Assembly: GCA_021081985.1 (NCBI GenBank)
Contig: GCA_021081985.1_3639.1
Reading direction: 5' to 3' (one strand)
Source of the DNA: a phage
DNA: 64,000 bases
A program made the position numbers and the translations under genes. Shown piece after piece: positions 147 through 18,536 of the stretch. The notes below the pieces were generated by a model. That model searched no databases, was not told where the DNA came from, and saw nothing but the letters and a program-made list of their open reading frames with translations. Within the stretch, counting starts at the first letter, position 1. Each line of letters opens with the position of its first letter.

Positions 147-1472
147 TTAATATATAGGATCCCACGTCAAAGAATCTACCTCACGAACACATTTGCCAAC
201 AGGAAATTGCGGAACACCGTCATCGGTCCTTGCTTGGTATGTAAAAGTTATATACTTGCCGATAAGTTTTTTCATATTCTCTTGTGAGCGTTCTTCGTGT
301 GTGCCTCTCATCTTACAGTTAAATTGTGTACCATCCTTCTCAGCACACAACAGGACACCTTCTCCATTCTTATCCTCAAAGGAATCAAGAACTCTGGCCT
401 CACCATCCTGAAACAATTTCCACTTTTGAAGATCAGACGATCTTTGTCCAAACTCATACTTTCCGTGAAAGTTCCTTATTACAACACCCTCATAACCTGC
501 TTCCATAAACTCCTTGATGAGCATTTTAACACGATCCTCATCAGACACTATTGCTCCGTGCACTACTTTAATCAGGTTATAAGGCCATGTATACTCAGAG
601 ACTTTCTGTAAATTATTAAACCTACACTTGTCTGTGTCAGAAGACATCCATGGTGTGTCATCTTCCGAAGGTATATCGAAAATATGATATTCTAAGTCTA
701 AACTTGAATAACCACAATACTTATTAATATTTTTCTCTGGTTTCTTTGTGATAGGATGTTCTAACCCTTCGGAGTCTTTCCAAAACTCATCACCATTGTT
801 AATTGCTTTTTCAAATCGCTTTATGTCTGATTGATAGTCTTTTTCTATCTCACATTCTATCTCTTCTGGTGTTCTCCATTTCTTAGCCAAAGAGACTATT
901 TTCTGGAGACTTAACCCATGAATATACAACTCTCCATCAAACATTTTCAATCCTGTCTTTTTGGCTAGTTTAGACATCTGATCAAGCAATTGGCCTTGTA
1001 CAGGATATGTTTTATTGCCACGACTATTAAACACAGGCACGCCATCATCACCAACCAGAACAAGTGCTCTAACACCATCAAGTTTTGGTTGAACATGCAA
1101 AGGATACACTAAAGAACTTTTCCTTTTGATGGCATCATGTGCCAGCATTGGTGAGAAATCTTGGGTTTTTGTAAGATCATCCTTAGATACGCGATACCCA
1201 AGGCGTACTTGTTTTTCCCACTTAGATTTTGCCTCCAAAACAGCTTGTTCTGTATCAGTTGTCTCATTTTTCTTACCGATGTTTTTGGCAAAGCATTTTG
1301 TGCGTTTATACTGCATTTTACCGTTTTCTTTACCAAACTCAACAACAGTTTCTGATCCATCTGCCCACACATTCCACACTTGATATGTACCATCCCTGTT
1401 TAGGGCGTATAGTGTTGGAAGGTTATTTTCAAGCATTAAATACCTCGCTTGTGACAACAGGTTTTCCTTCAA
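147..1472 (-). CDS. ATP-dependent ligase (nucleotidyltransferase superfamily)
   Basis: 441 aa; motif I KLDGVR (active-site Lys), motif IV EGVVIRN, motif V KWKLF. Confidence 0.75.
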   Translation of the reverse strand: MKENLLSQARYLMLENNLPTLYALNRDGTYQVWNVWADGSETVVEFGKENGKMQYKRTKCFAKNIGKKNETTDTEQAVLEAKSKWEKQVRLGYRVSKDDLTKTQDFSPMLAHDAIKRKSSLVYPLHVQPKLDGVRALVLVGDDGVPVFNSRGNKTYPVQGQLLDQMSKLAKKTGLKMFDGELYIHGLSLQKIVSLAKKWRTPEEIECEIEKDYQSDIKRFEKAINNGDEFWKDSEGLEHPITKKPEKNINKYCGYSSLDLEYHIFDIPSEDDTPWMSSDTDKCRFNNLQKVSEYTWPYNLIKVVHGAIVSDEDRVKMLIKEFMEAGYEGVVIRNFHGKYEFGQRSSDLQKWKLFQDGEARVLDSFEDKNGEGVLLCAEKDGTQFNCKMRGTHEERSQENMKKLIGKYITFTYQARTDDGVPQFPVGKCVREVDSLTWDPIY

Positions 1473-2214
1473 GGTGATTTTCTACCAACTCAATAAGTTT
1501 TTGGTTGCTGAATGCTTCAACTGCTCCACAGCGCATTTGGTACACACCATATTTATCATACTGCTCTTGTTCAAAGTAATTGATCGCTGGGTTTATTACA
1601 ACCAGTTTAATACCTCGTTTTGCGATTGCATGCAGCAATTCCCAGTTAAAGTCGATAACCTGATTAGAGCAGCCAACCAGAAGTACAAGATCTTGAGTAT
1701 TCAAGTCATCAAGCATGGTAAACATGTCCTGATAAAGTGGTGCATTCTCACCGAAAAATACCACATTTGGCTTGCACCACCAGTAATCATCAGGGTCAAC
1801 AACCGCATATCCGACATCAATCACACGTTTAGGAAACTCTTCACCATTCTGTACAACAAGCTCTTTGAGAAAACCATGTACATGGAGAATATCCTTCTTT
1901 TCAATGCCAGCACGTTCAAGCAGATCGTCAACGTTTGTTGTAAGATTACGTACTTGTCCAGGATAACGGTTATACCATTCTGCTACACGAAGATGTGCCA
2001 TGTTGGGGTGCACAGTCTTCAATTCTTCACGGCGTTTGTTATAAAATTCGTGTGTTTTGTGGTAAAAATTACCACGAAATGCATGAATATTACATACTTC
2101 TTCAAGATCATATTCATCCCAAAGAGCTTTACCTGACGAAGTATCTGTACGGAATGTGCGAATACCGCTTTCTGTTGACATACCTGCACCACTAATCACA
2201 AGTAATCGACGCAT
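1429..2214 (-). CDS. Sir2/sirtuin-family NAD-dependent protein
   Basis: 261 aa; N-terminal GAGMSTESGIRTFR matches the sirtuin NAD-binding signature. Confidence 0.75.
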   Translation of the reverse strand: MRRLLVISGAGMSTESGIRTFRTDTSSGKALWDEYDLEEVCNIHAFRGNFYHKTHEFYNKRREELKTVHPNMAHLRVAEWYNRYPGQVRNLTTNVDDLLERAGIEKKDILHVHGFLKELVVQNGEEFPKRVIDVGYAVVDPDDYWWCKPNVVFFGENAPLYQDMFTMLDDLNTQDLVLLVGCSNQVIDFNWELLHAIAKRGIKLVVINPAINYFEQEQYDKYGVYQMRCGAVEAFSNQKLIELVENHLEGKPVVTSEVFNA

Positions 2215-2222
2215 ATAACCAC

Positions 2223-2630
2223 CTATTGTAATTTTAAAGAGTTACGTAAACGTGCTTCTTGACGGTCACGAATAAACTGCGGGACATCATGAATGCTTTC
2301 GTTACCATGATAATTTTCCACAACTACAGATGTTACATCATAGCAGTAGTTTTCTGCTAAGTCAAGATAAGGTTTCAACTCTTTCGCAGAAGTTGTTGTG
2401 TTTGAAACAATAATCTTTTCAACTTCATTCTGCATGTGGAGTTCTACTTTGTCACGACACCATTGATGAGCTTTGTGGATATTTTCTTCTTTCCACTCAT
2501 ACACACCGTCTTCGGTGTAATGAAATTGGTCAGCTTCACACACAGGCCAACGACCATCATCAGACAACTCTTTAGCAAGAGTTGATTTTCCTGACCCAGA
2601 GACACCACGTAAAATAAATAACTTTTTCAT
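2223..2630 (-). CDS. small P-loop kinase, possibly polynucleotide 5'-kinase-like
   Basis: 135 aa; Walker A GVSGSGKST near N-terminus; sits between Sir2 and ligase-like genes. Confidence 0.55.
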   Translation of the reverse strand: MKKLFILRGVSGSGKSTLAKELSDDGRWPVCEADQFHYTEDGVYEWKEENIHKAHQWCRDKVELHMQNEVEKIIVSNTTTSAKELKPYLDLAENYCYDVTSVVVENYHGNESIHDVPQFIRDRQEARLRNSLKLQ

Positions 2631-2640
2631 TAGTTTTCCT

Positions 2641-2973
2641 TTAGTATTGGTGACGATAAAACTTTATACCTAAAGTGTTTTCGAAATATTCTCTCGCCAA
2701 CATAAACTTGTTCACGGCAGATGGGTTAGAGCTATGTACGTGAATCTCTTTAAGATTCGTAAACTTACCATCATGAAGCTCACGTTCAATATAGATGAAA
2801 GCATCGTAACCTTCCTCATCACCACCCAAATCATTATCAAAATGGATGGAATCAATGTCGCTATCACTCATAAATTTTAGTAATGAGTAGAAGCTAGAGA
2901 GATTCTTACACCATAAGGCATTAGGGTATCCATAATCTACTGGATTTCGCAGATCATCCAACCACAGTTTCAA
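2641..2973 (-). CDS. hypothetical protein in repair cluster
   Basis: 110 aa ORF tightly packed between kinase and ligase-like genes; no motif recognised. Confidence 0.45.
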   Translation of the reverse strand: MKLWLDDLRNPVDYGYPNALWCKNLSSFYSLLKFMSDSDIDSIHFDNDLGGDEEGYDAFIYIERELHDGKFTNLKEIHVHSSNPSAVNKFMLAREYFENTLGIKFYRHQY

Positions 2974-3902
2974 ATTGTACCTCCGAAAAAATCCTCAATA
3001 ATTTCACGACGGAATTGTTCATGCAAACATTCCCAATGTTCTTTAGAATAGTTATCACGCAAATAGTTTAAAAGGTTATAATACTCTTCGTCAACTTTCT
3101 TCTTAGCTTCTTCTGGGTTTCCCCAAATCATATCCCACTTGTTCTTACCGCCACGCATCAAAAATTTCTTCGCCAAATAGTGTGGTGATTTTATCTTCAA
3201 GAGAAGATCTTGCTGTCCTGTAGCAGCACGTACAACAAACCCTTCATGTTTGCATTCTTTAGACATTTTCAGGATGTCTGAAAAGTGCATATTTATGTAA
3301 GTCTCTGGTCGTTTAAAACCGAACTCTTTTGCGATAAGATCCAGAGCTTTTTCACTAAGCATAGAAGTTAATTTGTCTTTATGAAATCGAACACCAATCA
3401 AATACACACCTGCCTTTTCTGGTACAATGTGTGGGTCTGAAGGAGCGCAAATCTCAAAGATAAATGTTGTCTTTGGTTCTTCCACACATGATAACAACAT
3501 TGGCAAATTAGTACATTCTTCCATGATCATACCTTTTGCAAGTTTTGCAAAATCGGAATCTAGAGTTCCTGTTGTTGAAACAATTAGCTCACCATTGTAT
3601 GAGCTTACTGCTGCCATGAAGCCATTAACTTTACGTGCTGCATTCACAACCATATCTTTTGGAAGATCAGTACCGTTCTCTAAATGATTGAAAATCTTGG
3701 TAAAAGGCCACACAACGATGTTGTCATCACTGTCCACAACCATACCACGGCAATCAAGTAAGCGACTGTCTTGATCCCACAAGTTTTCCCAAAAAACTTT
3801 GTTACTGTATTTCAAAACAGACAAACCTTTAAACTCACCACTGGTATAAGTCTTCTTTTTGACAAGGCCTTTTGATACTAAATCTTCAACATTGAATTTC
3901 AT
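2970..3902 (-). CDS. ligase-family nucleotidyltransferase, likely RNA ligase
   Basis: 310 aa; motif I RKVNGF (KxNG), motif IV EGFVVR, motif V LLKIKSP. Confidence 0.6.
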   Translation of the reverse strand: MKFNVEDLVSKGLVKKKTYTSGEFKGLSVLKYSNKVFWENLWDQDSRLLDCRGMVVDSDDNIVVWPFTKIFNHLENGTDLPKDMVVNAARKVNGFMAAVSSYNGELIVSTTGTLDSDFAKLAKGMIMEECTNLPMLLSCVEEPKTTFIFEICAPSDPHIVPEKAGVYLIGVRFHKDKLTSMLSEKALDLIAKEFGFKRPETYINMHFSDILKMSKECKHEGFVVRAATGQQDLLLKIKSPHYLAKKFLMRGGKNKWDMIWGNPEEAKKKVDEEYYNLLNYLRDNYSKEHWECLHEQFRREIIEDFFGGTI

Positions 3903-4099
3903 TTGTCTTCACCGTCACTATTGTATGATTGTTTATTAAATGACTCAATTATACATGTTGATCGTCTTGCGTCAACAGATTGGCTTGTTAAATCTTTAGC
4001 AACAACTAGTTTTTCCACATCATCTTTTTTGATGGATCCGTAAGCACCAGAATCCATCATGAAGAATATTTTATCTTCTGTTATCTTGTGTATTTTCAT
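3899..4099 (-). CDS. hypothetical small protein
   Basis: 66 aa ORF, 4-nt overlap with upstream gene. Confidence 0.3.
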   Translation of the reverse strand: MKIHKITEDKIFFMMDSGAYGSIKKDDVEKLVVAKDLTSQSVDARRSTCIIESFNKQSYNSDGEDK

Positions 4100-4120
4100 T
4101 CATAAAATCTCAATAATTAT

Positions 4121-4699
4121 TCAATGGCCATCAGCAGTGAAAACGTCTTTTTCCATACACATTTGGTATGCTTCTGGCAGACCCAAAATTCTCCCATGTA
4201 CATCCCAACCAACATCAAGAATCCGTCCTTTCGCACTGTAAGATCCGTGACTGTGCCCATGCAAGAACACAGACCCATAGTGAGATTTATTCCACGCGGC
4301 AAACGGGTAATGACTCATACAAATTTTTTGTTCATAATCGTTAAATTCGTAATAATCGCACACATCATGACCACGTTTTTTGAATGTTTTAATCGCATCA
4401 AAATTGTCATGATTACCTTTGACAAGGACGATATGCCCAACAAGTTCATCAAGAATTTCTTCAAGTCTTTTAATAACTTGCTTGCCACGACCAAAACAAA
4501 AATCACCAAGCACAAAAGTCACAGTATCGGCATCTGCGCCGTGGTTAAATTTCACTGTGAGGTCTTGGTTCATTTGTTCAACGGTTTTGTACAAATCACC
4601 ACGAAAACGTTTTGAACTCTCAAAGTTCAGGATGTTTTTATGCCAGTAATGTAAATCAGATGTTACACGGTATTTGGTTCCCATTTCTCTCTCCCTCAC
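4121..4699 (-). CDS. calcineurin-like metallophosphoesterase
   Basis: 192 aa; GDxxxGR, GNHD and GHSH metal-binding motifs. Confidence 0.75.
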   Translation of the reverse strand: MREREMGTKYRVTSDLHYWHKNILNFESSKRFRGDLYKTVEQMNQDLTVKFNHGADADTVTFVLGDFCFGRGKQVIKRLEEILDELVGHIVLVKGNHDNFDAIKTFKKRGHDVCDYYEFNDYEQKICMSHYPFAAWNKSHYGSVFLHGHSHGSYSAKGRILDVGWDVHGRILGLPEAYQMCMEKDVFTADGH

Positions 4700-4709
4700 A
4701 CAACAAAAA

Positions 4710-5147
4710 TCACTGTCGCTCTAACAAATCTTCTGCTGGATAAGCATACAGCATGTATTCCCAACCACGATGGTAATGTCTGTGTTGCCAGTTGATTAAT
4801 TTTAGACACACAATGTTCACCACGTTCCTGTCCCCATGGATAAAAACACAAGTCTCAAGGATTGACTTTCCAAACTCAACATGACTGTCAAGATACAGTT
4901 TTGTGTTGTATCTTTTTTCAGCATCCAGCATGATCTGTTTCAAGGCCAGAAATGCCTCGCAACACACAGATTTTTCATCAGAAATCATTTTGATATTCAA
5001 GCATTCACCCCCACACAGGCAACCACGCAAATCGTGTCTGATCACCACAACACAATCGGTTTGAAACAAACCTGTTTGACACACAACAGGCATCGTCGTA
5101 GTGTCATGCCTAAACACAGACAGATATGATACGACGAAGATCCCCAC
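4710..5147 (-). CDS. hypothetical Cys-rich protein
   Basis: 145 aa ORF, several Cys pairs; first gene downstream of the AT-rich control region on the minus strand. Confidence 0.4.
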   Translation of the reverse strand: MGIFVVSYLSVFRHDTTTMPVVCQTGLFQTDCVVVIRHDLRGCLCGGECLNIKMISDEKSVCCEAFLALKQIMLDAEKRYNTKLYLDSHVEFGKSILETCVFIHGDRNVVNIVCLKLINWQHRHYHRGWEYMLYAYPAEDLLERQ

Positions 5148-5362
5148 ACAGAGTCACATAGTGACTTGTGACAACCCGAATCCATGATTGAGATAAACAC
5201 ACAGAGACAAACCTGTAGGGTTTGTTGATGTGGGTTTATCTCAGAATGGCTCATGAGGGTTAGATGATCACAAGCTATCAGCGCAGTGAGCATCTTACAC
5301 ACTCACGTATTGCCTGAAGAGTCTCATCGACTCATGCTTTCAGGCAAAACACTATGAACTCT

Positions 5363-5406
5363 ATGATTCGAAATCATCGAACCATACGATTCGACTCAAT
5401 CGAATC
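5363..5406. repeat. palindromes ATGATTcgaAATCAT and GATTCGA-n5-TCGAATC
   Basis: Perfect inverted repeats read directly in the divergent intergenic region. Confidence 0.6.
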
Positions 5407-5493
5407 ATATCAACAAAAATATTTAAAATCAAGTCTTGACATTCTTCAAGACTTAATGTATTTTAAATAAATTTTATATAATATATTATTATA

Positions 5494-5596
5494 TATAATA
5501 CGTAGTATTATATTATATTAAATTATATTATATAATTTATATTATATTAGATCATATTAAATAGATCATAGTATTATAATACGTAGTATTATATTT
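5494..5596. repeat. AT-rich direct repeats (aatacgtagtattatat x2, tagatcat x2)
   Basis: Two copies of a 17-19 nt unit about 80 bp apart in an almost pure AT stretch. Confidence 0.6.
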
Positions 5597-5644
5597 AATA
5601 GATCTTATAAGTTAGTTTAATTTGATCAGTTAGTATTGTGTCCC

Positions 5645-5689
5645 CAAAACGGGGACATACCCATGTCCCTGAAATGGGGACATATGGGA
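5645..5689. promoter_or_regulatory. paired hairpin/operator-like sites GTCCCC-n-GGGGAC
   Basis: gtccccaaaacggggaca and gtccctgaaatggggaca in tandem just upstream of a TTGACA box. Confidence 0.4.
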
Positions 5690-5693
5690 GGGG

Positions 5694-5722
5694 TTGACAT
5701 TGTGTGGGGTTATGGGTAGCAT
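5694..5722 (+). promoter_or_regulatory. sigma70-like promoter candidate
   Basis: TTGACA, 17-nt spacer, TAGCAT. Confidence 0.35.
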
Positions 5723-6129
5723 TCTCGGTGTTGGATTACACACCGGAGTTTGCCTTGAAATCTAATGTTGGGGGTTTCCATGTAAATCCGAAAGCTGGGT
5801 CATACATCGCTGTCCCGACAGAGTGGGTTTTTGATGAACGGTTATCACCAAGCGATCTGCAAAGATTGATACGCTTGTTGTGGAGATACGAGTATTTCAA
5901 GAATCTGAACCCTCTGGGTGGGGAACTGGTATTCTTTCCGTCACAACAATCCTTGTGTGGCCTGTTGGGGTGGAATGAAAACTCACGAACCAAAGTGTCT
6001 GAATTTCTGTCTCGGATGGAGAGCTTTGGTTATATCAGGCGTGTTAGATCAGGATTTCAGGATTCTGATGGTAACGTGAAACCAAGAAATTATATTATCG
6101 TCAATCGTATCAGAGGGGATAAATCATGA
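5704..6129 (+). CDS. hypothetical protein
   Basis: 141 aa ORF, 4-nt overlap with the downstream Prs-like gene; start uncertain because it overlaps the promoter-like site. Confidence 0.4.
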   Translation: MGLWVAFSVLDYTPEFALKSNVGGFHVNPKAGSYIAVPTEWVFDERLSPSDLQRLIRLLWRYEYFKNLNPLGGELVFFPSQQSLCGLLGWNENSRTKVSEFLSRMESFGYIRRVRSGFQDSDGNVKPRNYIIVNRIRGDKS

Positions 6130-6935
6130 ATATTCGTTTGAGTTTGAACAAGCTACATGTGCCAGTTGACCATTTCACATTTAGTGGTGGTGAGGAGCAG
6201 ATTAAGATCGATATGCGTCATGTTCCGCATGGTTCGATAGGTTTTGTTGATATCTTCGCTAGACTCAAGAACTCACAGGATGTGATGTGTTTGGCACTGC
6301 TTGTTGATGCAGTTAATCGTCTTGGCAATTTGGATGTTGGTGTGGAAAAGGTTTTACACCTGCCGTACATTCCGTATGCTCGACAAGACCGAGTTATGAA
6401 CCCTGGAGAATCTCTGTCGGTGAAAGTCTTTGCCACAATGATTAACTCGCTTGGTTTCCACAAAGTCATCGTCGATGATCCACACAGTGACGTATCCGCA
6501 GCACTGATTGATAACGTGAAAATTCGTTCTCAGACTGATTTGTTCTTGAACATGAATTTTGATTTTGATCTGCTTACGGACGAATCGCTTGTGTTGGTTG
6601 CTCCAGATGCAGGTGCACGCAAGAAGACCCAGAAGGTTGCTGATACCTTGGAACTATCTGTGGTTGAAGCAGGTAAAATCCGTGATGTGGGAACAGGGGC
6701 AATCACAGGCACAACAGTGTTTGGTGATGTTGGTGGGAAGACATGCCTGATTGTCGATGATATCTGCGATGGTGGGTTTACGTTTACAAACTTAGCTCAA
6801 GCCTTGAAAGCTGCTGGTGCAAAACGTGTTATTTTGTATGTTACGCATGGAATTTTCTCTCGTGGGAAAGAATTTATTCTCGACGGTGGTGTTGACGAAA
6901 TTTATGCATACTACGACTGGACAGAAAATTTTTAA
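6126..6935 (+). CDS. PRPP-synthetase-like phosphoribosyl pyrophosphokinase
   Basis: 269 aa; PRPP-binding signature LVAPDAGA and IVDDICDGG. Confidence 0.7.
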   Translation: MNIRLSLNKLHVPVDHFTFSGGEEQIKIDMRHVPHGSIGFVDIFARLKNSQDVMCLALLVDAVNRLGNLDVGVEKVLHLPYIPYARQDRVMNPGESLSVKVFATMINSLGFHKVIVDDPHSDVSAALIDNVKIRSQTDLFLNMNFDFDLLTDESLVLVAPDAGARKKTQKVADTLELSVVEAGKIRDVGTGAITGTTVFGDVGGKTCLIVDDICDGGFTFTNLAQALKAAGAKRVILYVTHGIFSRGKEFILDGGVDEIYAYYDWTENF

Positions 6936-10346: not shown

Positions 10347-10354
10347 AATTTTTC

Positions 10355-11507: not shown

Positions 11508-11509
11508 AT

Positions 11510-11807: not shown

Positions 11808-11892
11808 GGGCGGTGTCCCCACACAAGTCTTCTAAACTTGTACTTAAAAAGTGGGAAGGAAGTGAGAGGTTCGATTCCTCCACCGTCTACCA
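11808..11892 (+). ncRNA. non-canonical tRNA-like RNA
   Basis: 3' end TTCGATTCC...ACCGTCTACCA with a pairing 5' segment GGGCGGT, no D-arm, internal hairpin ACAAGT-cttctaa-ACTTGT. Confidence 0.3.
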
Positions 11893-11968
11893 GATTAACC
11901 CCAACTTGAGAATCGTCAGCGCGGCTCGTAAGACCCACTCTATAGGTTCTCTACCTGGGGTGCTTATT

Positions 11969-12045
11969 GCACGGTTGCCGGAATTTGGTTACGGGTCTGT
12001 CTGCAAAACGGATATATGTCGGTTCAAGTCCGACACCGTGCTCCA
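11969..12045 (+). tRNA. tRNA-Cys (GCA)
   Basis: Acceptor GCACGGT/ACCGTGC, anticodon arm TCTGT-CTGCAAA-ACGGA, T-arm GTCGGTTCAAGTCCGAC, CCA; D-stem imperfect. Confidence 0.65.
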
Positions 12046-12082
12046 AACTTTCAATTTCTTGGCAAATATGTTAAAATACCAC

Positions 12083-12111
12083 TTGACAGATATGTTTTTA
12101 TTTGATAATAT
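12083..12111 (+). promoter_or_regulatory. sigma70-like promoter
   Basis: TTGACA, 17 nt, TAATAT, followed by RBS and ATG at 12132. Confidence 0.6.
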
Positions 12112-12131
12112 CATTAAGTGGGGTTTTTAAA

Positions 12132-12479
12132 ATGGCTACTAAGCAGCTTACAAAACGTAGAAGAGGAAAAGGTCGTCCTCTGAAAGAGGAATCTAATGCA
12201 ATTCAGTTAGAGAAAAATATCCTAGATTTGAAAACGAATCTGATTGCAATGATTCCTGAAGCTCATCAGGTTCTTAGGGATTTGATGAAGAATGTGAATA
12301 CAAAAGACAATATCAGAGAAAATATCGCTCGTTATGTTATTGAGAAAGGTGAGCAGATGCTTTCTGATTACTTTGATGAGGAAAACGAAGAGTTACTCGA
12401 AAAAGATAACTCAGAAAAAGCGCCTATTAAGGCAGCCAAACCATTCTCGACGGATATTGTTCAATTCAAACAAGGTTAA
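12132..12479 (+). CDS. hypothetical protein with basic N-terminus
   Basis: ORF track 12102..12479; start moved to the ATG after the promoter and RBS (MATKQLTKRRRGKGRP...). Confidence 0.45.
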   Translation: MATKQLTKRRRGKGRPLKEESNAIQLEKNILDLKTNLIAMIPEAHQVLRDLMKNVNTKDNIRENIARYVIEKGEQMLSDYFDEENEELLEKDNSEKAPIKAAKPFSTDIVQFKQG

Positions 12480-12480
12480 T

Positions 12481-12570
12481 GTGTCGTTAGACCGTAGGGG
12501 TAGCGGGGGAGACTGTAAATCTCCTGTCTCGAAAGGGACTCGGGTAGTTCGACTCTATCACGGCACACCA
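12481..12570 (+). tRNA. tRNA-Tyr (GUA), type II
   Basis: Acceptor GTGTCGT/ACGGCAC, anticodon arm GGAGA-CTGTAAA-TCTCC, long variable arm, T-arm GGTAGTTCGACTCTATC, CCA. Confidence 0.75.
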
Positions 12571-12638
12571 ACTAAATCTGTACTGGCTTTGATGTGTGAC
12601 GATACCCTCCAATCGTGGTTGTTGGGTCAGTACAGTTT

Positions 12639-12714
12639 GGGAGTGTAGATCAGTTAGTAGATCGCTCGACCGATAATCGAGAGGACGTAGGGGCAGAGCC
12701 TACCACTCCCACCA
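12639..12714 (+). tRNA. tRNA-Ile (GAU)
   Basis: Acceptor GGGAGTG/CACTCCC, D-arm GATC..GATC, anticodon arm CTCGA-CCGATAA-TCGAG, CCA; position 33 is C and the T-loop is atypical. Confidence 0.6.
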
Positions 12715-12719
12715 AATAT

Positions 12720-12794
12720 GCATCCATAGTTTAATTGGGAAAACTACAGCCTTCCAAGCTGAAGTCGAGGGTTCGATGCCCTCTGGATGCTCCA
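12720..12794 (+). tRNA. tRNA-Gly (UCC)
   Basis: Acceptor GCATCCA/TGGATGC, anticodon loop CTTCCAA, T-arm GAGGGTTCGATGCCCTC, CCA. Confidence 0.75.
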
Positions 12795-12919
12795 GTTAAA
12801 AGATGTCAATGAAATCCGCTTGGGTCAACTGAAGACCGTAACAAATTCCATGGGGTTGTGTTTGCGGTCCAACCCTAGACATCTTCTATCTTTAGTAGAA
12901 GGCTTTAATACGGACGAGT

Positions 12920-13150
12920 ATGATGGTTTCTAAATTAATCATAACAAGGCATCATAATGCTAAAGAAATAGAGATTGTGAATGCTGCTGGCACTCTTGTG
13001 CTAAAAGTTGGTAAAGACTGTCCTTTTGAATTGTGCCAGAAGGAACTTTTAAGTTTGTGCGGTTTCAGGTTTAAACAGATTATCTTTGAAAATGCTTTTC
13101 AATATTCAGACTTAAACCAGTACATTATATCTAGGCTTGATCCTGCATGA
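12920..13150 (+). CDS. hypothetical small protein
   Basis: 76 aa ORF, 4-nt overlap with the next gene. Confidence 0.35.
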   Translation: MMVSKLIITRHHNAKEIEIVNAAGTLVLKVGKDCPFELCQKELLSLCGFRFKQIIFENAFQYSDLNQYIISRLDPA

Positions 13151-13704
13151 GATACTTGAAATATTTATCTTGGATCCTGTTAGCACCTCTTGATCCAATT
13201 ATGTCGGCTCTCTGTGTTATTCTGGCTCCTTTTGTTGTTCCGTTCTATAATGAGAAGACAGGGCATCTACCCTATATTTTCAGGTGGATGGAAACATATG
13301 ATAATCCTATAGACGGTGACAGAGGACACATAGAGAGATGGGAAGAAGTCCGTAAAATAGGAAGTTTTGGTGTTTACCTACAACGAGTTGCTTGGTTGTG
13401 GAGAAATAAAGCCTACAATTTTTCCTATCACGTACTTGGACGTGAAATCGCATCTGTGACAAAGTGGAAAGGAAACATCCATGTAAGCTCTGATGTGGAG
13501 GATAATCAACAAGGCTATTTGTTGATGTGGAATGACAATGCGTGGGGTGTATTCGCGTTTGTCCCGTCTTTTAGATTGTTTGGAAAACAATTTTACTGGC
13601 GAATTTATGTCGGTTGGAAACTGAAGAGTGTGGTTCCTGAAGACAGAGCTTTTTCAAGAGAGAGGGTGATGTTGGCATTTTTCATAAGTCCTTTCCGAAA
13701 ATAG
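13147..13704 (+). CDS. hypothetical membrane protein
   Basis: 185 aa, hydrophobic N-terminal segment LSWILLAPLDPIMSALCVILAPFVVPF. Confidence 0.45.
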   Translation: MRYLKYLSWILLAPLDPIMSALCVILAPFVVPFYNEKTGHLPYIFRWMETYDNPIDGDRGHIERWEEVRKIGSFGVYLQRVAWLWRNKAYNFSYHVLGREIASVTKWKGNIHVSSDVEDNQQGYLLMWNDNAWGVFAFVPSFRLFGKQFYWRIYVGWKLKSVVPEDRAFSRERVMLAFFISPFRK

Positions 13705-13710
13705 TTTTTA

Positions 13711-13792
13711 ATGAGAGTAGCGTAACTTCACTGGGTGAAGGCTGGCCTCCAAAACCAGTGACTAAGAGGTTCGATTCCTCACTCTCGTGCCA
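13711..13792 (+). tRNA. tRNA-like, possibly tRNA-Trp (CCA)
   Basis: Acceptor ATGAGAG/CTCTCGT, loop CTCCAAA, T-arm GAGGTTCGATTCCTC, CCA; D-region is over-long and non-canonical. Confidence 0.4.
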
Positions 13793-13793
13793 A

Positions 13794-13869
13794 AGGGGAT
13801 TAGCATAGTGGCCTAATGCAACGGGCTTTGACCCCGTGATCGGTTGTTCGAATCAACCATCCCCTGCCA
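13794..13869 (+). tRNA. tRNA-Gln (UUG)
   Basis: Acceptor AGGGGAT/ATCCCCT, D-arm GCAT..ATGC, anticodon arm ACGGG-CTTTGAC-CCCGT, T-arm GGTTGTTCGAATCAACC, CCA. Confidence 0.8.
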
Positions 13870-13878
13870 AGTTAAAAC

Positions 13879-13968
13879 GGAGAAGCAAATCGATTGGCGA
13901 CGAAACCACATTGGAAATGTGCTGACTGGTAAAACGGCTTGAGAGTTCGATTCTCTCCTTCTCCACCA
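13879..13968 (+). tRNA. tRNA-Ser (GGA), type II
   Basis: Acceptor GGAGAAG/CTTCTCC, anticodon loop TTGGAAA, long variable arm, T-arm GAGAGTTCGATTCTCTC, CCA. Confidence 0.7.
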
Positions 13969-13982
13969 GTTTTTAAGGATTT

Positions 13983-14726
13983 ATGTATGCACTCTCCCCA
14001 AGAAAAAAAAATGGAAAACAGATATTTAATTTGTTGAAAAGCGGAAAAGGCTTCTCAAACCCGCTTCAATCAGGTCTTTCTCTGGTTGGTGGTAAAGTAA
14101 GTAGTCTATCTTCTTTATCTTCCTCTATTTCTTCGGTAACTAACCCAGCTATAAAGGCTCAATTAGCTGCCGCAGGTTTGACAACTGGCGTTTTATCAAA
14201 TTTTACTTCGTCTCTTGGTTCTGTTACAAGCACGACAAAAACGCTTGTTGATTATGGTCAGAAATCTGTTGAAGAGTTCTCCCAAAGAATGCACGCAGCG
14301 AGTAATTATATGAGTACTCTGAGCAGAATGGGAGAAAAGACAAGTTGTTCAATATTTAGTGACGTTATGTCTGTAGCCACTGATTTAGGTAAGAAAGCTA
14401 TGGATGCCGTTAATTCCGCGATGGATGCGGTGAACGATGTTATGTCTCAATTGCAAGATGCAATAAATAAGGGTTTGAATACAATATCTAGTTTGGCGAG
14501 TAAAGCTGTCTCAGCGATAAACAAAGGGATCCAGAAAATGTCTGAGTATGCTAGCCAAGTGACAAAGATGATTGAAGATGAAGCAAAGAAGTTGGCAGAC
14601 TACTTAAAGACAAGTGCTGAAGGATTTCTCGCAGATATCCTACCTGATTGGTTTAACGATTCTTGTAAATCTGGTATAGTTGACCAGATTGCTACACCAG
14701 AGATGAAAGAAGTTCTTAAAAAGTAA
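13983..14726 (+). CDS. hypothetical protein with Ser/Thr-rich N-terminus and amphipathic helical repeats
   Basis: 247 aa; repeated AMDAVN/SAINKG-type helices. Confidence 0.5.
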   Translation: MYALSPRKKNGKQIFNLLKSGKGFSNPLQSGLSLVGGKVSSLSSLSSSISSVTNPAIKAQLAAAGLTTGVLSNFTSSLGSVTSTTKTLVDYGQKSVEEFSQRMHAASNYMSTLSRMGEKTSCSIFSDVMSVATDLGKKAMDAVNSAMDAVNDVMSQLQDAINKGLNTISSLASKAVSAINKGIQKMSEYASQVTKMIEDEAKKLADYLKTSAEGFLADILPDWFNDSCKSGIVDQIATPEMKEVLKK

Positions 14727-14728
14727 TT

Positions 14729-14822
14729 GGAAGATTAACCCTAATTTGGTAAGGGGTCTCCCTGCTAAGGAGATAGTAACCCAGAAATGGGTGTGCCAGT
14801 TCAAGTCTGGCATCTTCCTCCA
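14729..14822 (+). tRNA. tRNA-Ser (GCU), type II
   Basis: Acceptor GGAAGAT/ATCTTCC, anticodon arm TCTCC-CTGCTAA-GGAGA, long variable arm, T-arm GCCAGTTCAAGTCTGGC, CCA. Confidence 0.75.
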
Positions 14823-14901
14823 CTGTATGTCAAGGCTCAGATTTCTTCGGACCTGGGCGTTCGCCTTTGTTGGGTGTATATTCTCGGCAGAGGCTATCTT
14901 T

Positions 14902-14990
14902 GGAGGCTGGGGTGCATGGTGCACAAGCTGGTTTGAACCCAGTCCCGCTGTAGAGATATGGTGACAGTTCGATTCTGTCAGCCTCCTCCA
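14902..14990 (+). tRNA. tRNA-Ser (UGA), type II
   Basis: Acceptor GGAGGCT/AGCCTCC, anticodon arm GCTGG-TTTGAAC-CCAGT, long variable arm, T-arm GACAGTTCGATTCTGTC, CCA. Confidence 0.7.
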
Positions 14991-15213
14991 AGTTATCTTT
15001 AATGTAGCTTGTTTAGTTGCTTGGTGTGATTTTTCGGTGGATGGCTGCAACCATCTTATCGATACCCCAGAGCAGTCCGCTCTTTACTGGCGTAAGCCAA
15101 ACACTTATGATGGTCATGTAATCGTAATCTATCATTAGTGTGCTCTCCCTGGAGAGCTGTTGCGTATAGCTAATTATTGTGTGAGTAATTAGCTATTTTA
15201 AAGATAATTTGAC

Positions 15214-15290
15214 GGATCTGTAGCCAAATGGTTTAAGGCACTCGACTTTTAATCGAGAGATTGTTGGTTCGAATCCAACCAGATCCACCA
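15214..15290 (+). tRNA. tRNA-Lys (UUU)
   Basis: Acceptor GGATCTG/CAGATCC, anticodon arm CTCGA-CTTTTAA-TCGAG, T-arm GTTGGTTCGAATCCAAC, CCA. Confidence 0.85.
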
Positions 15291-15299
15291 AAATATTCA

Positions 15300-15390
15300 G
15301 GTTCTTTGACCGAGTGGTCGATGGTGACGGCCTGTTAAGCCGTTGGGAGGAATCTCCCCACCGAAGGTTCGAATCCTTCAGGAACCGCCA
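15300..15390 (+). tRNA. type II tRNA with GUU anticodon (nominally Asn)
   Basis: Acceptor GGTTCTT/AGGAACC, anticodon arm ACGGC-CTGTTAA-GCCGT, 19-nt variable arm with hairpin GGGAG/CTCCC, T-arm GAAGGTTCGAATCCTTC, CCA. Confidence 0.55.
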
Positions 15391-15474
15391 ATTCTTGACT
15401 TAATCAAGTCACAGATATCACCTAGCCAGCGATACCAGTTAGTAGATTCTGGGACAATTAAAATCTACATTTCT

Positions 15475-15552
15475 CTGTCCGTAGCGCAGCTTGGGTAGCG
15501 CGGGTCACTTGGGATGATCAGGTCGTTGGTTCAAATCCAACCGGACAGACCA
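15475..15552 (+). tRNA. tRNA-Pro (UGG)
   Basis: Acceptor CTGTCCG/CGGACAG, D-arm GCGC..GCGC, anticodon arm GGTCA-CTTGGGA-TGATC, T-arm GTTGGTTCAAATCCAAC, CCA. Confidence 0.8.
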
Positions 15553-15594
15553 ATAAACATATACATATCAAAGCAGAAATGTACAGAGGATACC

Positions 15595-15786
15595 ATGTTA
15601 ACAGTTAAAGTCGTATCTCCAAATGATGAACAAATTTTTTGTGGGAAAATTGTTGGGTATTGTGCTCATCAAAAGTCTATAGCTATTTCAGGTATTGACC
15701 AAAAAGTGTTTTTGTCTGAGGATCAGACCGCTTATGTGATCAATGCCAATGGAAAAACTATTTCTGTGTATCGTGGAAAACCGTAA
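15595..15786 (+). CDS. hypothetical small protein
   Basis: ORF track 15514..15786 begins inside tRNA-Pro; internal Met (MLTVKVV...) taken as start. Confidence 0.3.
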   Translation: MLTVKVVSPNDEQIFCGKIVGYCAHQKSIAISGIDQKVFLSEDQTAYVINANGKTISVYRGKP

Positions 15787-15800
15787 CTCTTAATATAAAT

Positions 15801-15877
15801 GGGCGATTGATGGAATTGGTATACATGTCAGGCTTAGAACCTGAATTTTGGGGGTTCGAGTCCCTCATCGCCTACCA
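15801..15877 (+). tRNA. type I tRNA with UAG anticodon (nominally Leu)
   Basis: Acceptor GGGCGAT/ATCGCCT, anticodon arm TCAGG-CTTAGAA-CCTGA, 5-nt variable loop, T-arm GGGGGTTCGAGTCCCTC, CCA. Confidence 0.55.
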
Positions 15878-15882
15878 ATTAT

Positions 15883-15958
15883 GTGACGGTAACTCAGTTG
15901 GTAGAGTGCCTTGCTGAAGACTAGGTGGTCACAGGTTCGAATCCTGTCCGTCACACCA
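15883..15958 (+). tRNA. tRNA-Phe (GAA)
   Basis: Acceptor GTGACGG/CCGTCAC, D-arm ACTC..GAGT, anticodon loop CTGAAGA, T-arm ACAGGTTCGAATCCTGT, CCA. Confidence 0.75.
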
Positions 15959-15973
15959 AACAGGAAATAGATT

Positions 15974-16204
15974 ATGCGAAGAAAATTGAAGAGTGCATAT
16001 ATCCAAAAAATAGAGACAGTTAGAAAATTTTGTGCTGGGTGGCCTCTTATTCTACTTATTGCCGATTCTAGGTATACTACTCAAGATGTGAAGAACTACA
16101 AGAAAGTAGATAAGTATTGTCGGACAAAGAAAGGAAGACTTGATGGTACTTATGAGATCCATTTTGGTCATCCACCTAGAAGGATTTCTCTTGGTAATAA
16201 ATGA
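15974..16204 (+). CDS. hypothetical small protein
   Basis: 76 aa ORF between tRNAs. Confidence 0.3.
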   Translation: MRRKLKSAYIQKIETVRKFCAGWPLILLIADSRYTTQDVKNYKKVDKYCRTKKGRLDGTYEIHFGHPPRRISLGNK

Positions 16205-16208
16205 ACAT

Positions 16209-16284
16209 TGCGAGTTTGAAGTCTGGTGACTTCGCTGGTCTCATAAGCCAGTCCAGATTGGTTCGATCCCAATACTCGCAACCA
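16209..16284 (+). tRNA. tRNA-Met (CAU), second copy
   Basis: Acceptor TGCGAGT/ACTCGCA, D-arm GAAG..CTTC, anticodon arm CTGGT-CTCATAA-GCCAG, T-arm ATTGGTTCGATCCCAAT, CCA. Confidence 0.75.
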
Positions 16285-16416
16285 GAATTAAAGTGGACAC
16301 TAAGGAAGGTCGTGGCTGAGTAAACGGTAAGACACTCTCGACATGTAAAGGTTCCTTCGCCACTTTTCTCAAATAACTATAATAATAATCCAATCAATCT
16401 CCTCTCCTATGCCTAA

Positions 16417-16440
16417 CCCCGCCTCTTGCGGGGTTTTTCT
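16417..16440 (+). terminator. rho-independent terminator at end of tRNA island
   Basis: CCCCGC-ctctt-GCGGGG followed by TTTTTCTTT. Confidence 0.7.
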
Positions 16441-16486
16441 TTATGTGCTAGTCTTTACGCATCTTGTTTTGTACTTAAGGATAGCT

Positions 16487-17848
16487 AAGATGTTGCATGT
16501 TTTCAAAAAAGAAGATTTTCAAAGAGAGTATGACATTTTGTGCTCTTTTATACCAAAAGGTGTTTATGATTTATTGTCAAAGCTGGATGTTAAGATAGCT
16601 GGCGGTGCAATAACCTCTTTGTTCTCTAATAGTAAAGTCAACGATCTTGATTTGTATTTCCCATCTTGGGAAAGCCTTGAGATATTCATTGCGTACATGA
16701 TGGATAAAAGACTCTTGTCAGGGAAATATGATTTGTCTAAGAAAACAAATGGCTGGGCGTCAGATCAAAAAATAGCATTTAGGCATTTCTATAAACTTGA
16801 TCACGGTGATCCAGCATTTTCAAATTTTACAGATCCTCTTTCTATAGGTAGAGAATATGACAATGAATACGATTATTTATGTGATGAAGATGATAATTTG
16901 CCAACCATGAAAAAGGTTGGTGTGACAGATAAGAGTGTGATGTTTTACTTTGGACAAGAGCCTGTCTTTCAATGTGTGGCTGTGGATGTGTTCAAAACAA
17001 CAGAAGACATCTTTAGCAAATTTGATTTTACAATAAATATGGGTGCTTTTAACTTCAAAGATGGTGTGTGGGAATTTAATAGCAATTTCTTAAAACATAT
17101 TGCTCAAAGAGTTTTGGTTGTAAATCATAAAACTGAATACCCGATTATGTCACTTTTGAGATCTGAAAAATACAAATCTCGTGGCTATACAATTTCGAAA
17201 AAAGAGACAATGAAACTGGCTATGACCATTGCTAACCTTCAGATAGAAGGTTGGGAATCGGCAAAGTCACATCTTAGCGGGATGTACGGAATGAAACTGT
17301 CAGATATTTTTGATGAGACAAAACAGTTTTCACTTGATTCTTTGGTTGAGTGCCTAGACAGATTAGAATCTTGTTGCCAGCAGGTAGACAAAAATGTTAC
17401 CCCTGTGCAACCGTTGCCGTTTAATGATGTATCTAAAGTTAATATGTTTAATATTTTTCAAAGATTAAGAAAAGCAACAGGCAGGAAATACTTTACAAAA
17501 CTATATGGGGTTTGTCCTGCTGAAGTTTTCTATCTTATGATGCCAACAAAAGATACACATTATGTTGGGCTTTACAAAGAAGATATAGCAAATAATTTTC
17601 CCACTCTCAGACTTTATGTTGATGAGAAGAAGGCAAGAGAATATTACGAATACCTGTGTGAGTGTGGTAAGACAGATGGTTATGGATGCCTAATGTATAA
17701 ACCTGGGGCAGTTCTCTTAGATGTCTCAATAAGTGATCCATCTAAGATGCAATACGATATCATAACTGATGAGATTAATATTTATGAAAACAGAAAAACA
17801 ACATTGAAAATTGAAAACATTATTGTGTGTGATGGGGATATATCATGA
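16487..17848 (+). CDS. hypothetical protein, possible Pol-beta-type nucleotidyltransferase fold
   Basis: ORF track 16409..17848 starts inside the terminator; likely start is ATG at 16487 with RBS AAGGAT. N-terminal GGAITSLFSNSKVNDLDLYF fits the G[GS]-x9-13-DxD signature. Confidence 0.45.
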   Translation, partial: KMLHVFKKEDFQREYDILCSFIPKGVYDLLSKLDVKIAGGAITSLFSNSKVNDLDLYFPSWESLEIFIAYMMDKRLLSGKYDLSKKTNGWASDQKIAFRHFYKLDHGDPAFSNFTDPLSIGREYDNEYDYLCDEDDNLPTMKKVGVTDKSVMFYFGQEPVFQCVAVDVFKTTEDIFSKFDFTINMGAFNFKDGVWEFNSNFLKHIAQRVLVVNHKTEYPIMSLLRSEKYKSRGYTISKKETMKLAMTIANLQIEGWESAKSHLSGMYGMKLSDIFDETKQFSLDSLVECLDRLESCCQQVDKNVTPVQPLPFNDVSKVNMFNIFQRLRKATGRKYFTKLYGVCPAEVFYLMMPTKDTHYVGLYKEDIANNFPTLRLYVDEKKAREYYEYLCECGKTDGYGCLMYKPGAVLLDVSISDPSKMQYDIITDEINIYENRKTTLKIENIIVCDGDIS

Positions 17849-18246
17849 TATGGTTTAAAACGCTGTTAACTTTCTTTTCTAGGAACATAAAACAGATAGG
17901 TGTTGTTTTGTGTTGTGTGGTTCTCGTCTGTGGTATCTTGGGGATAAAACATTGGTATAATGACCAGTTAACATCGTCCTACAACGCAGGTGTCAGCGAC
18001 ACGGATCTTAAATGGGAGAGGATTAACCAGCAAGTTAGAGATCACAACAACGCTTTTAAAAAACAACAGCAGGATAAGATCGATGAGTTGTCAACCATGT
18101 TGGTGAAAGAGAGAGAAATTAATAACCAACTGAAAGAAGACCTTGATAAAAAGGTTAAAAGTTATAGCAAAACACAAGCAGGAAAACAGGTTTGCCTCGA
18201 TAACCAGTTTGTTGATATCTATAACGACAGTTTGGGGTCTAAATGA
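17845..18246 (+). CDS. i-spanin-like protein
   Basis: 133 aa; N-terminal transmembrane helix then charged coiled-coil; 4-nt overlap with a lipoprotein gene. Confidence 0.5.
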   Translation: MIWFKTLLTFFSRNIKQIGVVLCCVVLVCGILGIKHWYNDQLTSSYNAGVSDTDLKWERINQQVRDHNNAFKKQQQDKIDELSTMLVKEREINNQLKEDLDKKVKSYSKTQAGKQVCLDNQFVDIYNDSLGSK

Positions 18247-18536
18247 AAAAGTATGTTATCATGGTTCCTTTTCTATTGTTTATGTTAACAGGGTGCACTT
18301 CACCACCTGAGAGAGTTGTTCCTGTTGCAAAAGAGATCATAATAAGCGATATCCTAGCAAGACCACCCGCTGAAGCTATGATACCACCGAAAGAACCTGA
18401 AAAATTGCCAGGTGGTCTTAGTAATGCAGATGCTATCGAGGTGATTAAGAAAAACAACATTAAGGCTGCTGAAGATCGTATGAAATTAAGAACGTTACAG
18501 CAGTATGTAAAGACAATATTTTCTTCAGACAAATAG
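18243..18536 (+). CDS. o-spanin-like outer-membrane lipoprotein
   Basis: 97 aa; signal peptide with lipobox LTGC, Pro-rich mature region. Confidence 0.55.
   Translation: MKKYVIMVPFLLFMLTGCTSPPERVVPVAKEIIISDILARPPAEAMIPPKEPEKLPGGLSNADAIEVIKKNNIKAAEDRMKLRTLQQYVKTIFSSDK

Follow-up and report, generated by a model that had tools for sequence, protein, structure and literature searches.

Positions 147 to 18,536 of a 64,000-nucleotide phage contig (GCA_021081985.1_3639.1 of assembly GCA_021081985.1; the whole stretch is referred to below as the window) bring together, within about 18 kb, a sirtuin, an RNA heal-and-seal set, a pair of genes resembling NAD+ reconstitution enzymes, transfer RNA (tRNA) and tRNA-like genes, and a nucleotidyltransferase-fold protein. 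The initial annotation suggested that these elements form one coordinated early anti-immunity programme arranged around a single regulatory region. Does the locus encode such a programme, a set of separate modules or a group of ordinary auxiliary genes? We found every one of these elements in its proposed place. The phage is Avunavirus-like (subfamily Vequintavirinae), the first 20 kb being ~95% identical by Megablast to the Escherichia phages vB_EcoM_TH18 and Av-05, and the stretch is best explained as the junction of a leftward early operon and a rightward tRNA/late block in such a phage. It is a true anti-defence island, of a type already recognised and assembled from known modules; the parts of the cluster had been described before and look like separate modules rather than a single programme. 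We consider it probable that a conserved position has gathered four accessory modules, which work side by side to counter host defences damaging to RNA, NAD+ or DNA.

Two modules from defined anti-defence families

Two of the modules, a NARP1 pair and a Gad2 homologue, belong to experimentally defined anti-defence families, and to this extent the counter-defence reading of the region stands; for the tRNA set, codon usage is as good an explanation, as described below. The distance from the end of NARP1 (8715) to the start of the Gad2 homologue (16490) is only 7.8 kb, which makes the 18-kb region an island by the published working definition of at least two known anti-defence systems within 10 kb (AntiDefenseFinder, PMC11724313). 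About one-third of known phage anti-defence systems lie within 10 kb of another one (PMC11724313). The two modules and the genes next to them comprise:

5704–6129, + strand: 141-residue protein, possible regulator (phrog_8453, E 6e-53; weak HTH_Crp_2 match, E 2e-3, below the cut-off)
6126–6935, + strand: Adps, ADP-ribose pyrophosphate synthetase of the Prs family (Prs domains; homology to Bas63 Adps)
7000–8715, + strand: Namat, nicotinamide ADP-ribose transferase of the NamPT family (PF04095, E 2e-28)
16490–17848, + strand: Gad2-family protein (homology to SPbetaL6 Gad2)
17845–18246, + strand: i-spanin (phrog_4297, E 4e-48; N-terminal transmembrane segment)
18243–18536, + strand: o-spanin (phrog_1267, E 7e-22; lipobox LTGC)

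The phage operon annotated as Prs plus Nampt has been shown to encode Adps and Namat, which rebuild NAD+ from the products of NADase effectors (bioRxiv 10.1101/2024.02.11.579819). In the same study, Adps-clade enzymes made no phosphoribosyl pyrophosphate (PRPP) in vitro, ADP-ribose (ADPR) and nicotinamide were the substrates of NARP1, and deletion of NARP1 sensitised phages to NADase defences, the pair deleted experimentally being that of the Felixounavirus Bas63. In the window, Adps is 39% identical to Bas63 Adps (E 3e-50, versus E 1e-21 against E. coli Prs) and Namat is 42% identical to Bas63 Namat (E 1e-143), with the Namat start 65 nt past the Adps end. Both proteins are 92–98% identical to those of Av-05 and TH18 (92–94% for the Adps orthologues), whose orthologues are listed in the supplementary Prs/Adps table of Osterman et al. 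with the flag 'Yes', and whose Namat orthologues carry the label 'Adps-associated' in the tables of that study (bioRxiv 10.1101/2024.02.11.579819). Lysine K184, in a GK(I/V)R motif, aligns with Bas63 Adps and, in a HMMER alignment to E. coli Prs, lies two residues off DKRR; the catalytic lysine of Adps is K162 in SPbetaL1, equivalent to B. subtilis Prs K197 (bioRxiv 10.1101/2024.02.11.579819). The pair that the initial annotation had likened to NAD+ reconstitution enzymes is NARP1 on both counts, an Adps-clade Prs protein and an adjoining Namat, with NAD+ rebuilding predicted from sequence. By analogy with the activity demonstrated in other phages, Adps would place a pyrophosphate on ADP-ribose and Namat would couple nicotinamide to the product, so that NAD+ is rebuilt when host NADase effectors fire.

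We also considered NARP2, a salvage pair in which a KVP40-clade Nampt is combined with a phage Nmnat (bioRxiv 10.1101/2024.02.11.579819). This assignment was rejected because a Prs-like partner, as present here, defines NARP1, and because the orthologues belong to the Adps-associated clade; in the open reading frames (ORFs) scanned at 1–20 kb of the window, no domain resembling Nmnat was detected. The 141-residue protein also precedes Adps in the comparison loci L003, L005 and L013, and is present in L010, a contig that ends before Adps.

The Gad2 homologue is encoded by an ORF at 16409–17848 (479 residues). Its start is probably Met28 (nt 16490), because a terminator-like hairpin occupies 16415–16435 and the homologues begin at this point. 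It was identified through tblastn, hhalign and the precomputed Pfam labels carried by its homologues; the protein itself had no match in the local Pfam search even at E 10, and a PDB sequence search returned nothing meaningful. All 42 database homologues carry PF26128 (Gad2), the tblastn match is an SPbetaL6 coding sequence annotated as Gad2 (BLASTP E 1e-30), and hhalign against Gad2 gave a probability of 100% (E 2e-61) over 327 columns across both domains. An invariant GG...DxD...D motif is retained. The N-terminal part is like a nucleotidyltransferase of the Pol-beta/CCA-adding-enzyme type, in line with the proposed fold, and has the predicted catalytic carboxylates; the C-terminal part is predicted to be an ADP-ribosyltransferase (ART)-like domain; it resembles ART folds, RNA 2'-phosphotransferase included, with no assignable catalytic ART residues. 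Gad2 was defined through a knockout in SPbetaL7, which became sensitive to Gabija, and through a homologue that abolished Gabija defence; the original description noted only a nucleotidyltransferase domain (10.1101/2023.05.01.538930), and a 2026 review gives the mechanism as unknown (PMC12904381). The homologue in the window would counter Gabija by a nucleotidyltransferase-dependent activity.

A CCA-adding enzyme, acting in tRNA 3'-end repair, was considered for this protein. Only ~200 residues (head and neck) superpose, the C-terminus having an ART-like fold, and 18 of the 19 tRNA-type genes described below encode their CCA; for the first and last of these reasons the assignment was not accepted. 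PolyA_pol (PF01743) gave no Pfam match to the protein even at E 10. Among Escherichia records, no match to the Gad2 homologue was found outside the Av-05/TH18 group, 4MG, LNA4 and AV124. Elsewhere, Gad2-family genes lie 0.3–2 kb from an ATP-dependent DNA ligase, both in SPbetaL6 (L023 13220–16320) and in two unrelated metagenomic phage contigs (L015/L016 2572–9107; L017 4462–9392), and near these pairs are found an Rnl2-type RNA ligase, or a metallophosphoesterase and a UvrD helicase. This association may bear on countering a system that senses DNA ends. A NARP1 pair beside Gad2 in SPbetaL6 was examined and rejected: the two genes of the right size encode a poly-gamma-glutamate hydrolase and a beta-helix protein.

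RNA-repair operon and tRNA array

Genes in the window run leftward from ~5.1 kb and rightward from ~5.7 kb, with a change of sign of the GC skew near 6 kb. The leftward genes are:

147–1436, − strand: ATP-dependent DNA ligase (PF01068, E 9e-15; PF14743, E 2e-10; KLDG motif)
1429–2214, − strand: Sir2-family protein, predicted to use NAD+ (PF02146, E 6e-26)
2223–2630, − strand: P-loop nucleotide/polynucleotide kinase, predicted 5'-OH kinase (AAA_33, E 9e-10; P-loop GVSGSGKST)
2641–2973, − strand: cREC (cyclic-phosphate-processing receiver-like) domain protein (PF20274, E 7.6e-16; acidic residues LDD...DND)
2970–3902, − strand: T4 Rnl1-type RNA ligase (PF09511, E 4e-18; motifs KVNG, EGFVV and KIK)
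3899–4099, − strand: conserved 66-residue protein inside the repair operon (phrog_20147, E 1e-17; also in L008 and L010)
4121–4684, − strand: calcineurin-like metallophosphoesterase, predicted healer of 2',3'-cyclic and 3'-phosphate ends (PF00149, E 6e-8; DxH/GD/GNHD/GH)
4710–5093, − strand: phrog_7684 protein, first gene of the leftward operon (E 2e-34 over residues 51–142; start codon uncertain)

The kinase, cREC protein, Rnl1-type ligase and metallophosphoesterase carry the expected Pfam domains and catalytic motifs, in agreement with the heal-and-seal module that had been proposed. The kinase is a stand-alone protein of 135 residues and does not have the fused HAD 3' phosphatase of a bifunctional Pnkp. 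The metallophosphoesterase matches 1xm7 in the PDB (E 8e-7); for Rnl1, homologues of which occur in 737 phage records, a sequence search for relatives of solved structure detected none. The nearest solved structure to the Sir2 protein is E. coli CobB (1s5p, E 3e-19), and an alignment with CobB revealed that the GAGxSxxSGIxxFR NAD+-binding motif and the catalytic HG are retained, without the four zinc-ribbon cysteines of CobB. Sir2 homologues are found in ~1,000 phage records, T5-like phages among them. The phrog_7684 protein keeps its position in relatives, and the start of the DNA ligase was set at Met13 from the TH18 annotation.

This gene set corresponds to a described type 2 sirtuin-centred neighbourhood (phages V5 and Mydo), in which a sirtuin accompanies a T4-like RNA ligase, cREC, a nucleotide kinase and MazG, with a calcineurin-like phosphoesterase as a sometimes-present member (PMC9503650). 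Iyer et al. proposed in 2022, as a prediction, that the sirtuin is KptA/Tpt1-like and removes 2'-phosphates in an NAD+-dependent manner, and that cREC, phosphoesterase or Nudix enzymes process ADP-ribose cyclic phosphate (ADPr>P) (PMC9503650). An RNA-repair function of the leftward operon is predicted from the domains present. When an anticodon nuclease cuts a tRNA, the metallophosphoesterase and/or cREC would open the 2',3'-cyclic phosphate, the kinase would phosphorylate the 5'-OH, Sir2 might use NAD+ to strip a residual 2'-phosphate, following the proposal of Iyer et al., and Rnl1 would seal the break last.

The DNA ligase is the last gene of this operon visible ahead of the window edge. 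In TH18 the operon runs on past that edge with a MazG-like gene (PRA-PH, E 5e-6), which is also annotated in K54_rec3, so position 147 is set by the window rather than by biology. At the other end, the spanin pair (17845–18536) consists of lysis genes, not counter-defence genes. Beyond the window start, the TH18 operon (L021 9935–12381) encodes a MazG/PRA-PH-like pyrophosphatase and a Band-7/SPFH protein and, farther along, exonuclease, thymidylate synthase and ribonucleotide reductase genes.

Rightward of NARP1 lies the tRNA array:

8770–16284, + strand: tRNA array with interspersed small ORFs (ARAGORN, Rfam RF00005 and cloverleaf folds)
11510–11606, + strand: 97-nt non-canonical tRNA-like RNA (RF00005, 33 bits; cloverleaf)

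We counted a tRNA as confident if it was called by ARAGORN or scored above the RF00005 gathering threshold of Rfam. ARAGORN called 14 tRNAs, Rfam added two above its gathering score (12639–12711 and 11510–11606) and gave three further tRNA-like matches below it, at ~11806, 13711 and 16209; all five loci beyond the ARAGORN set fold as cloverleaves. The 16 confident tRNAs comprise Met, Thr, a UAU-type, Cys, Tyr, Ile-GAU, Gly, Gln, three Ser, Lys, Asn, Pro, Leu and Phe, and the three tRNA-like genes have the anticodons UCU, CCA and CAU, which together match the earlier estimate of about 19. The CCA end is encoded in 18 of these 19. In the parallel-module reading, the phage tRNAs would stand in for depleted host tRNAs while also serving the A-ending codons of the phage.

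The presence of several unusual tRNA-like RNAs was likewise borne out, with non-canonical features at 11510, 11806, 12639, 13711 and 16209. The 97-nt RNA has a long variable arm and a 6-bp D stem, and its CCA is not encoded. It is 95% identical to an RNA of phage rV5 (L004 16933–17020), although protein identity between the two phages is only ~50%; the changes at two base pairs are compensatory, and the anticodon is TAT here and TTT in rV5. Since the middle anticodon base differs, the body of the RNA is kept and its apparent decoding identity is not. A tRNA-Asn(GUU) at 15300–15390 has a long stem-forming variable arm and a total length of 85–91 nt, odd for tRNA-Asn; the same long-armed form occurs in the Klebsiella phage K54_rec3 (L003 4378–4462) and in an IMG/VR contig (L006 1827–1911). 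In the Ile(GAU) gene at 12639–12714 the T-loop GGCAGAG replaces TTCGAAT, the Trp(CCA)-like and Met/Ile(CAU)-like RNAs (13711–13790 and 16209–16284) have 6-bp D stems and D loops of 3–4 nt, and the Arg(UCU)-like RNA (11806–11892) has a long arm. Some non-canonical tRNA-type genes are absent from TH18, indicating that the composition of the array shifts fast between close relatives. The small ORFs among the tRNAs include DUF7338 and DUF7217, and in Pfam and PHROG scans the ORFs at 8.7–16.3 kb matched only families of unknown function. Unannotated ORFs in this position are reasonable guilt-by-association candidates for new inhibitors.

Expression signals, relatives and rival readings

The regulatory features between and within the modules are:

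5094–5703, no strand: divergent intergenic region (sigma-70-like promoters at 5436 and 5694 on the + strand and at 5432 on the − strand)
8729–8746, + strand: intrinsic-terminator-like hairpin closing the NARP1 unit
16415–16435, + strand: strong intrinsic-terminator-like hairpin ending the tRNA unit

The + strand of the 64-kb window contains nine exact TTGACA-N16-18-TAnnnT sites, of which eight fall at 5076–12083, whereas shuffles of the window contained 3.2 ± 1.8 such sites on both strands over its whole length. The consensus sites mostly stand just upstream of a gene or tRNA, and four are inside the tRNA array (8977, 9577, 10355 and 12083); in the leftward operon the sigma-70-like sites (5432, 3975 and 2365) are weaker. 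Because consensus promoters indicate transcription by the host RNA polymerase, NARP1 and the first tRNAs are probably early. A third terminator-like hairpin lies at 18545, and the three hairpins divide the + strand into units. The single regulatory region of the initial annotation is therefore replaced by about eight separate + strand promoters with terminators at 8729, 16415 and 18545, and its early programme is retained in part: the sigma-70 promoters in 5–12 kb fit early expression, but the Gad2 homologue, downstream of the 16415 terminator and with spanin and terminase neighbours, has no consensus early promoter. We found no transcript-timing data for rV5-like phages in the literature searched.

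The divergent region also contains an AT-rich palindromic tract, with ~150 bp of almost pure A+T at 5456–5607, and two 21-nt copies of a hairpin repeat (TGTCCCCAAAACGGGGACATA) at 5639–5684. Tract and repeats are located between the divergent operons, where the GC skew flips sign, and might act as a replication origin or DNA-unwinding element in addition to their promoter role.

Comparison with related phages revealed a layout shared across the Vequintavirinae. The typical order is terminase, spanins, Gad2 homologue, tRNAs, Namat, Adps and o141 on one side and, diverging from it, o145, phosphoesterase, Rnl1, cREC, kinase, Sir2 and DNA ligase on the other. This order is found in the Klebsiella phage K54_rec3 (a circular complete record), in 4MG and Ro1, and in further IMG/VR contigs, at 40–75% protein identity; rV5 and the IMG/VR contigs L005 and L009–L011 are among the records that keep the layout. 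The tRNA arrays of the relatives, of up to 22 genes, occupy the same place beside the modules. Recurrence of the layout over this range of identity argues that the clustering is more than an accident of one genome. In relatives the genes stay in one place, not scattered, and yet NARP1, Gad2 and the position of Sir2 vary. Since content differs between lineages, the modules are individually dispensable, and the picture is one of modules plugged into a conserved site of the genome, as is typical of accessory hot spots. In the IMG/VR contigs L006 and L007 (149-kb class), for instance, NARP1 lies beside the repair genes with no Sir2 within 10 kb.

Several observations weigh against the parallel-module reading. 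The modules have their own promoters and terminators, and a location beside lysis and packaging genes is odd for an early inhibitor such as Gad2. Phage rV5 keeps the repair genes, Sir2 and tRNAs and lacks NARP1 and Gad2, and ukendt (phAPEC8-like) has repair genes, DNA ligase and tRNAs, again without NARP1 and Gad2, indicating that the set is not obligatorily linked. In TH18 and Av-05, unrelated small genes occupy the DNA left of ~5135, and the repair module is not joined to NARP1. Phage-encoded tRNAs read all five codons whose use most exceeds that in E. coli, so that a defence role is unnecessary to account for the tRNAs. Finally, we infer every activity in this phage, the early timing and any cross-talk between modules. 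What can be read directly from the DNA and its homologues is the identity of the genes, their conserved layout, the promoter and terminator signals, and the homology to the NARP1 and Gad2 families as defined by experiment. Neither the pattern of promoters and terminators nor the independent gain and loss of modules supports one coordinated programme.

The situation in TH18 and Av-05 raises the question of whether the repair module adjoins NARP1 only through a choice made in assembly, or because the window shows one of two inversion isomers, either of which would make the island partly an artefact. The ligase/Sir2 module is at the far end of the TH18 record, and the whole ligase/Sir2/repair module is absent from Av-05, which is 13 kb shorter. 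TH18 is as long as two sister-assembly contigs combined (79447 + 54435) and looks like their concatenation; bases 5135–5690 (~550 bp) are found in inverted orientation at each end of the 54-kb contig, and this is exactly where three sister assemblies break. In TH18-type genomes the inverted copies flank a 54-kb early-gene segment, and in this group the inverted repeat either permits both orientations or confuses assemblers, so that the segment is invertible or the records contain errors. However, the join seen in the window recurs in K54_rec3, which is circular, in rV5, 4MG and Ro1, and in further IMG/VR contigs, and the loss of the whole ligase module and of 13 kb suggests that Av-05 is the defective record. 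We regard an artefact as very unlikely.

Another reading is an integrated, NAD+-coupled programme switched on jointly from the divergent promoter region and forming a closed NAD+ economy. Sir2, and perhaps the ART-like domain of Gad2, would spend NAD+ on the repair or modification of nucleic-acid ends, cREC and phosphoesterase would turn ADP-ribose cyclic phosphate into ADP-ribose, and NARP1 would use this with nicotinamide to regenerate NAD+. NARP1 would then mainly feed the phage's own NAD+-consuming repair enzymes, and the two domains of Gad2, a CCA-adding-like nucleotidyltransferase and an ART-like domain, would together form an enzyme that works on the ends of RNA or DNA. Consistent with such a loop, NARP1 adjoins the repair operon over the 40–75% identity range, ADPR and nicotinamide are NARP1 substrates, the C-terminal domain of Gad2 is similar to ART folds including RNA 2'-phosphotransferase, KptA-like Sir2 activity and ADPr>P processing have been proposed (PMC9503650), and both strands of the divergent region carry promoters. 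This evidence is purely contextual. Against it, rV5 has Sir2 and repair genes without NARP1, Sir2 of ukendt lies 31 kb from its RNA ligase, Bas63 NARP1 has nucleotide-metabolism genes around it, a polynucleotide kinase 5 kb away and no tRNA closer than 25 kb, promoters and terminators are several, and catalytic ART residues cannot be assigned in Gad2. We consider the closed loop doubtful, and distinctly unlikely.

The codon data bear on a third reading, in which these are ordinary auxiliary genes without a defence role, co-located because large lytic phages put non-structural genes at the boundary of early and late regions. Comparison of 57 long ORFs of the window with an E. coli codon table gave AGA (7x), ACA (4.7x), AUA (3.9x), AGG (3.9x) and UCU (3x) as the most over-used codons. 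The tRNAs would then adapt translation to an AT-rich genome, Prs and NamPT would supply nucleotides and NAD+, the DNA ligase would serve DNA replication, Rnl1 would attach tail fibres like T4 gp63, and Sir2 would deacylate proteins. Indeed, Rnl1 is publicly annotated as 'RNA ligase and tail fiber attachment catalyst', the leftward operon of TH18 leads into exonuclease, thymidylate synthase and ribonucleotide reductase genes, and among solved structures Sir2 is closest to CobB, a deacylase. This reading conflicts with the failure of Adps-clade enzymes to make PRPP in vitro, with the sensitivity to NADase defences that followed NARP1 deletion and the sensitivity of SPbetaL7 to Gabija that followed gad2 deletion, and with a set of kinase, phosphoesterase, cREC and ligase that has no obvious role besides mending broken RNA ends. 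On balance, a purely housekeeping locus is unlikely. For the tRNA array, codon supply and defence are compatible roles, as T5 tRNA-Lys (below) illustrates. We retain, as probable, the reading of four accessory modules acting in parallel at a conserved position.

Two observations concern DNA farther from these modules. In the terminase region (window 18632–24000), the large terminase of TH18 is annotated in three pieces split by an HNH homing endonuclease, that of rV5 is annotated as joined, with an inserted endonuclease VII gene, and a 55-nt inverted repeat (20376–20430 and 63341–63395) ties the region to a site 43 kb off. The splits and the repeat are probably traces of intron or homing-endonuclease traffic. 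In the distant IMG/VR contig L014 (125.8 kb), positions 2965–18732 hold kinase, Rnl1 and phosphoesterase genes and a weak Namat-like gene, with an amber-suppressor-type tRNA (anticodon CTA) and a transfer-messenger RNA (tmRNA) gene within 10 kb.

Significance and comparison with known systems

If the parallel-module reading is true, one conserved 18-kb position would counter three common kinds of defence (tRNA cleavage, NAD+ depletion and Gabija), which would explain part of the host range of these phages and offer a compact target for the engineering of therapeutic phages. The region also provides an E. coli model for the role of phage sirtuins, for which KptA-like removal of 2'-phosphates was predicted in 2022, and for the mechanism of Gad2, whose CCA-adding-like plus ART-like architecture and DNA-ligase neighbours suggest substrates. 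The candidate new points, to be taken as leads, are the predicted ART-like C-terminal domain of Gad2, a possible connection of the modules with one another through NAD+, and the 97-nt tRNA-like RNA conserved with rV5.

As in the NARP1 operons of Osterman et al., the Prs-family gene here has a NamPT-family gene immediately downstream. Bas63 NARP1 differs in its surroundings: its nucleotide-metabolism neighbours include ribonucleotide reductase and rII, whereas the pair in the window is preceded by a conserved winged-helix-like ORF and has the RNA-repair operon on one flank and the tRNA array on the other.

The core set of the type 2 neighbourhood of Iyer et al. (sirtuin, T4-like ligase, cREC and kinase) forms four consecutive genes here (1429–3902); of the accessory genes, the phosphoesterase is in the window (4121–4684), and the MazG-like gene is seen beyond its edge in TH18. 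We see no essential difference between the two, and the leftward genes are another member of this type, with a predicted function. In phage T4, Pnkp and Rnl1 mend tRNA-Lys cut by PrrC. The heal-and-seal logic, an Rnl1-family ligase and a P-loop 5' kinase are common to both systems, but T4 Pnkp fuses a HAD-type 3' phosphatase to the kinase, whereas the window encodes a separate metallophosphoesterase and cREC, with a sirtuin in addition.

The tRNA-Lys of T5 rescues infection from PARIS (PMC11464382). Like the defence-bypassing tRNAs of the T5 type, the large set described here holds Lys(UUU), Asn(GUU), Thr(UGU) and Tyr(GUA); unlike the case of T5 tRNA-Lys and PARIS, nuclease resistance of these tRNAs is conjecture, and the set also tracks the codon bias of the phage.

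The Gad2 homologue and SPbeta Gad2 are homologous over both domains and have the GG...DxD motif in common, with ~36% identity in the conserved core and a ~60-residue insertion in the head domain of the window protein. SPbeta Gad2 is encoded in the gad1 locus beside a DNA ligase, whereas the window homologue lies between the tRNA array and the spanins; SPbeta Gad2 counters Gabija, and activity of the window homologue against E. coli Gabija is predicted from homology. As a whole, the region resembles the anti-defence islands of T4 and lambda in that NARP1 and Gad2, both known systems, are less than 10 kb apart and have further candidates as neighbours. It differs from them in being interleaved with tRNA genes, in ending with lysis genes, and in occupying a conserved position rather than a mobile cassette.

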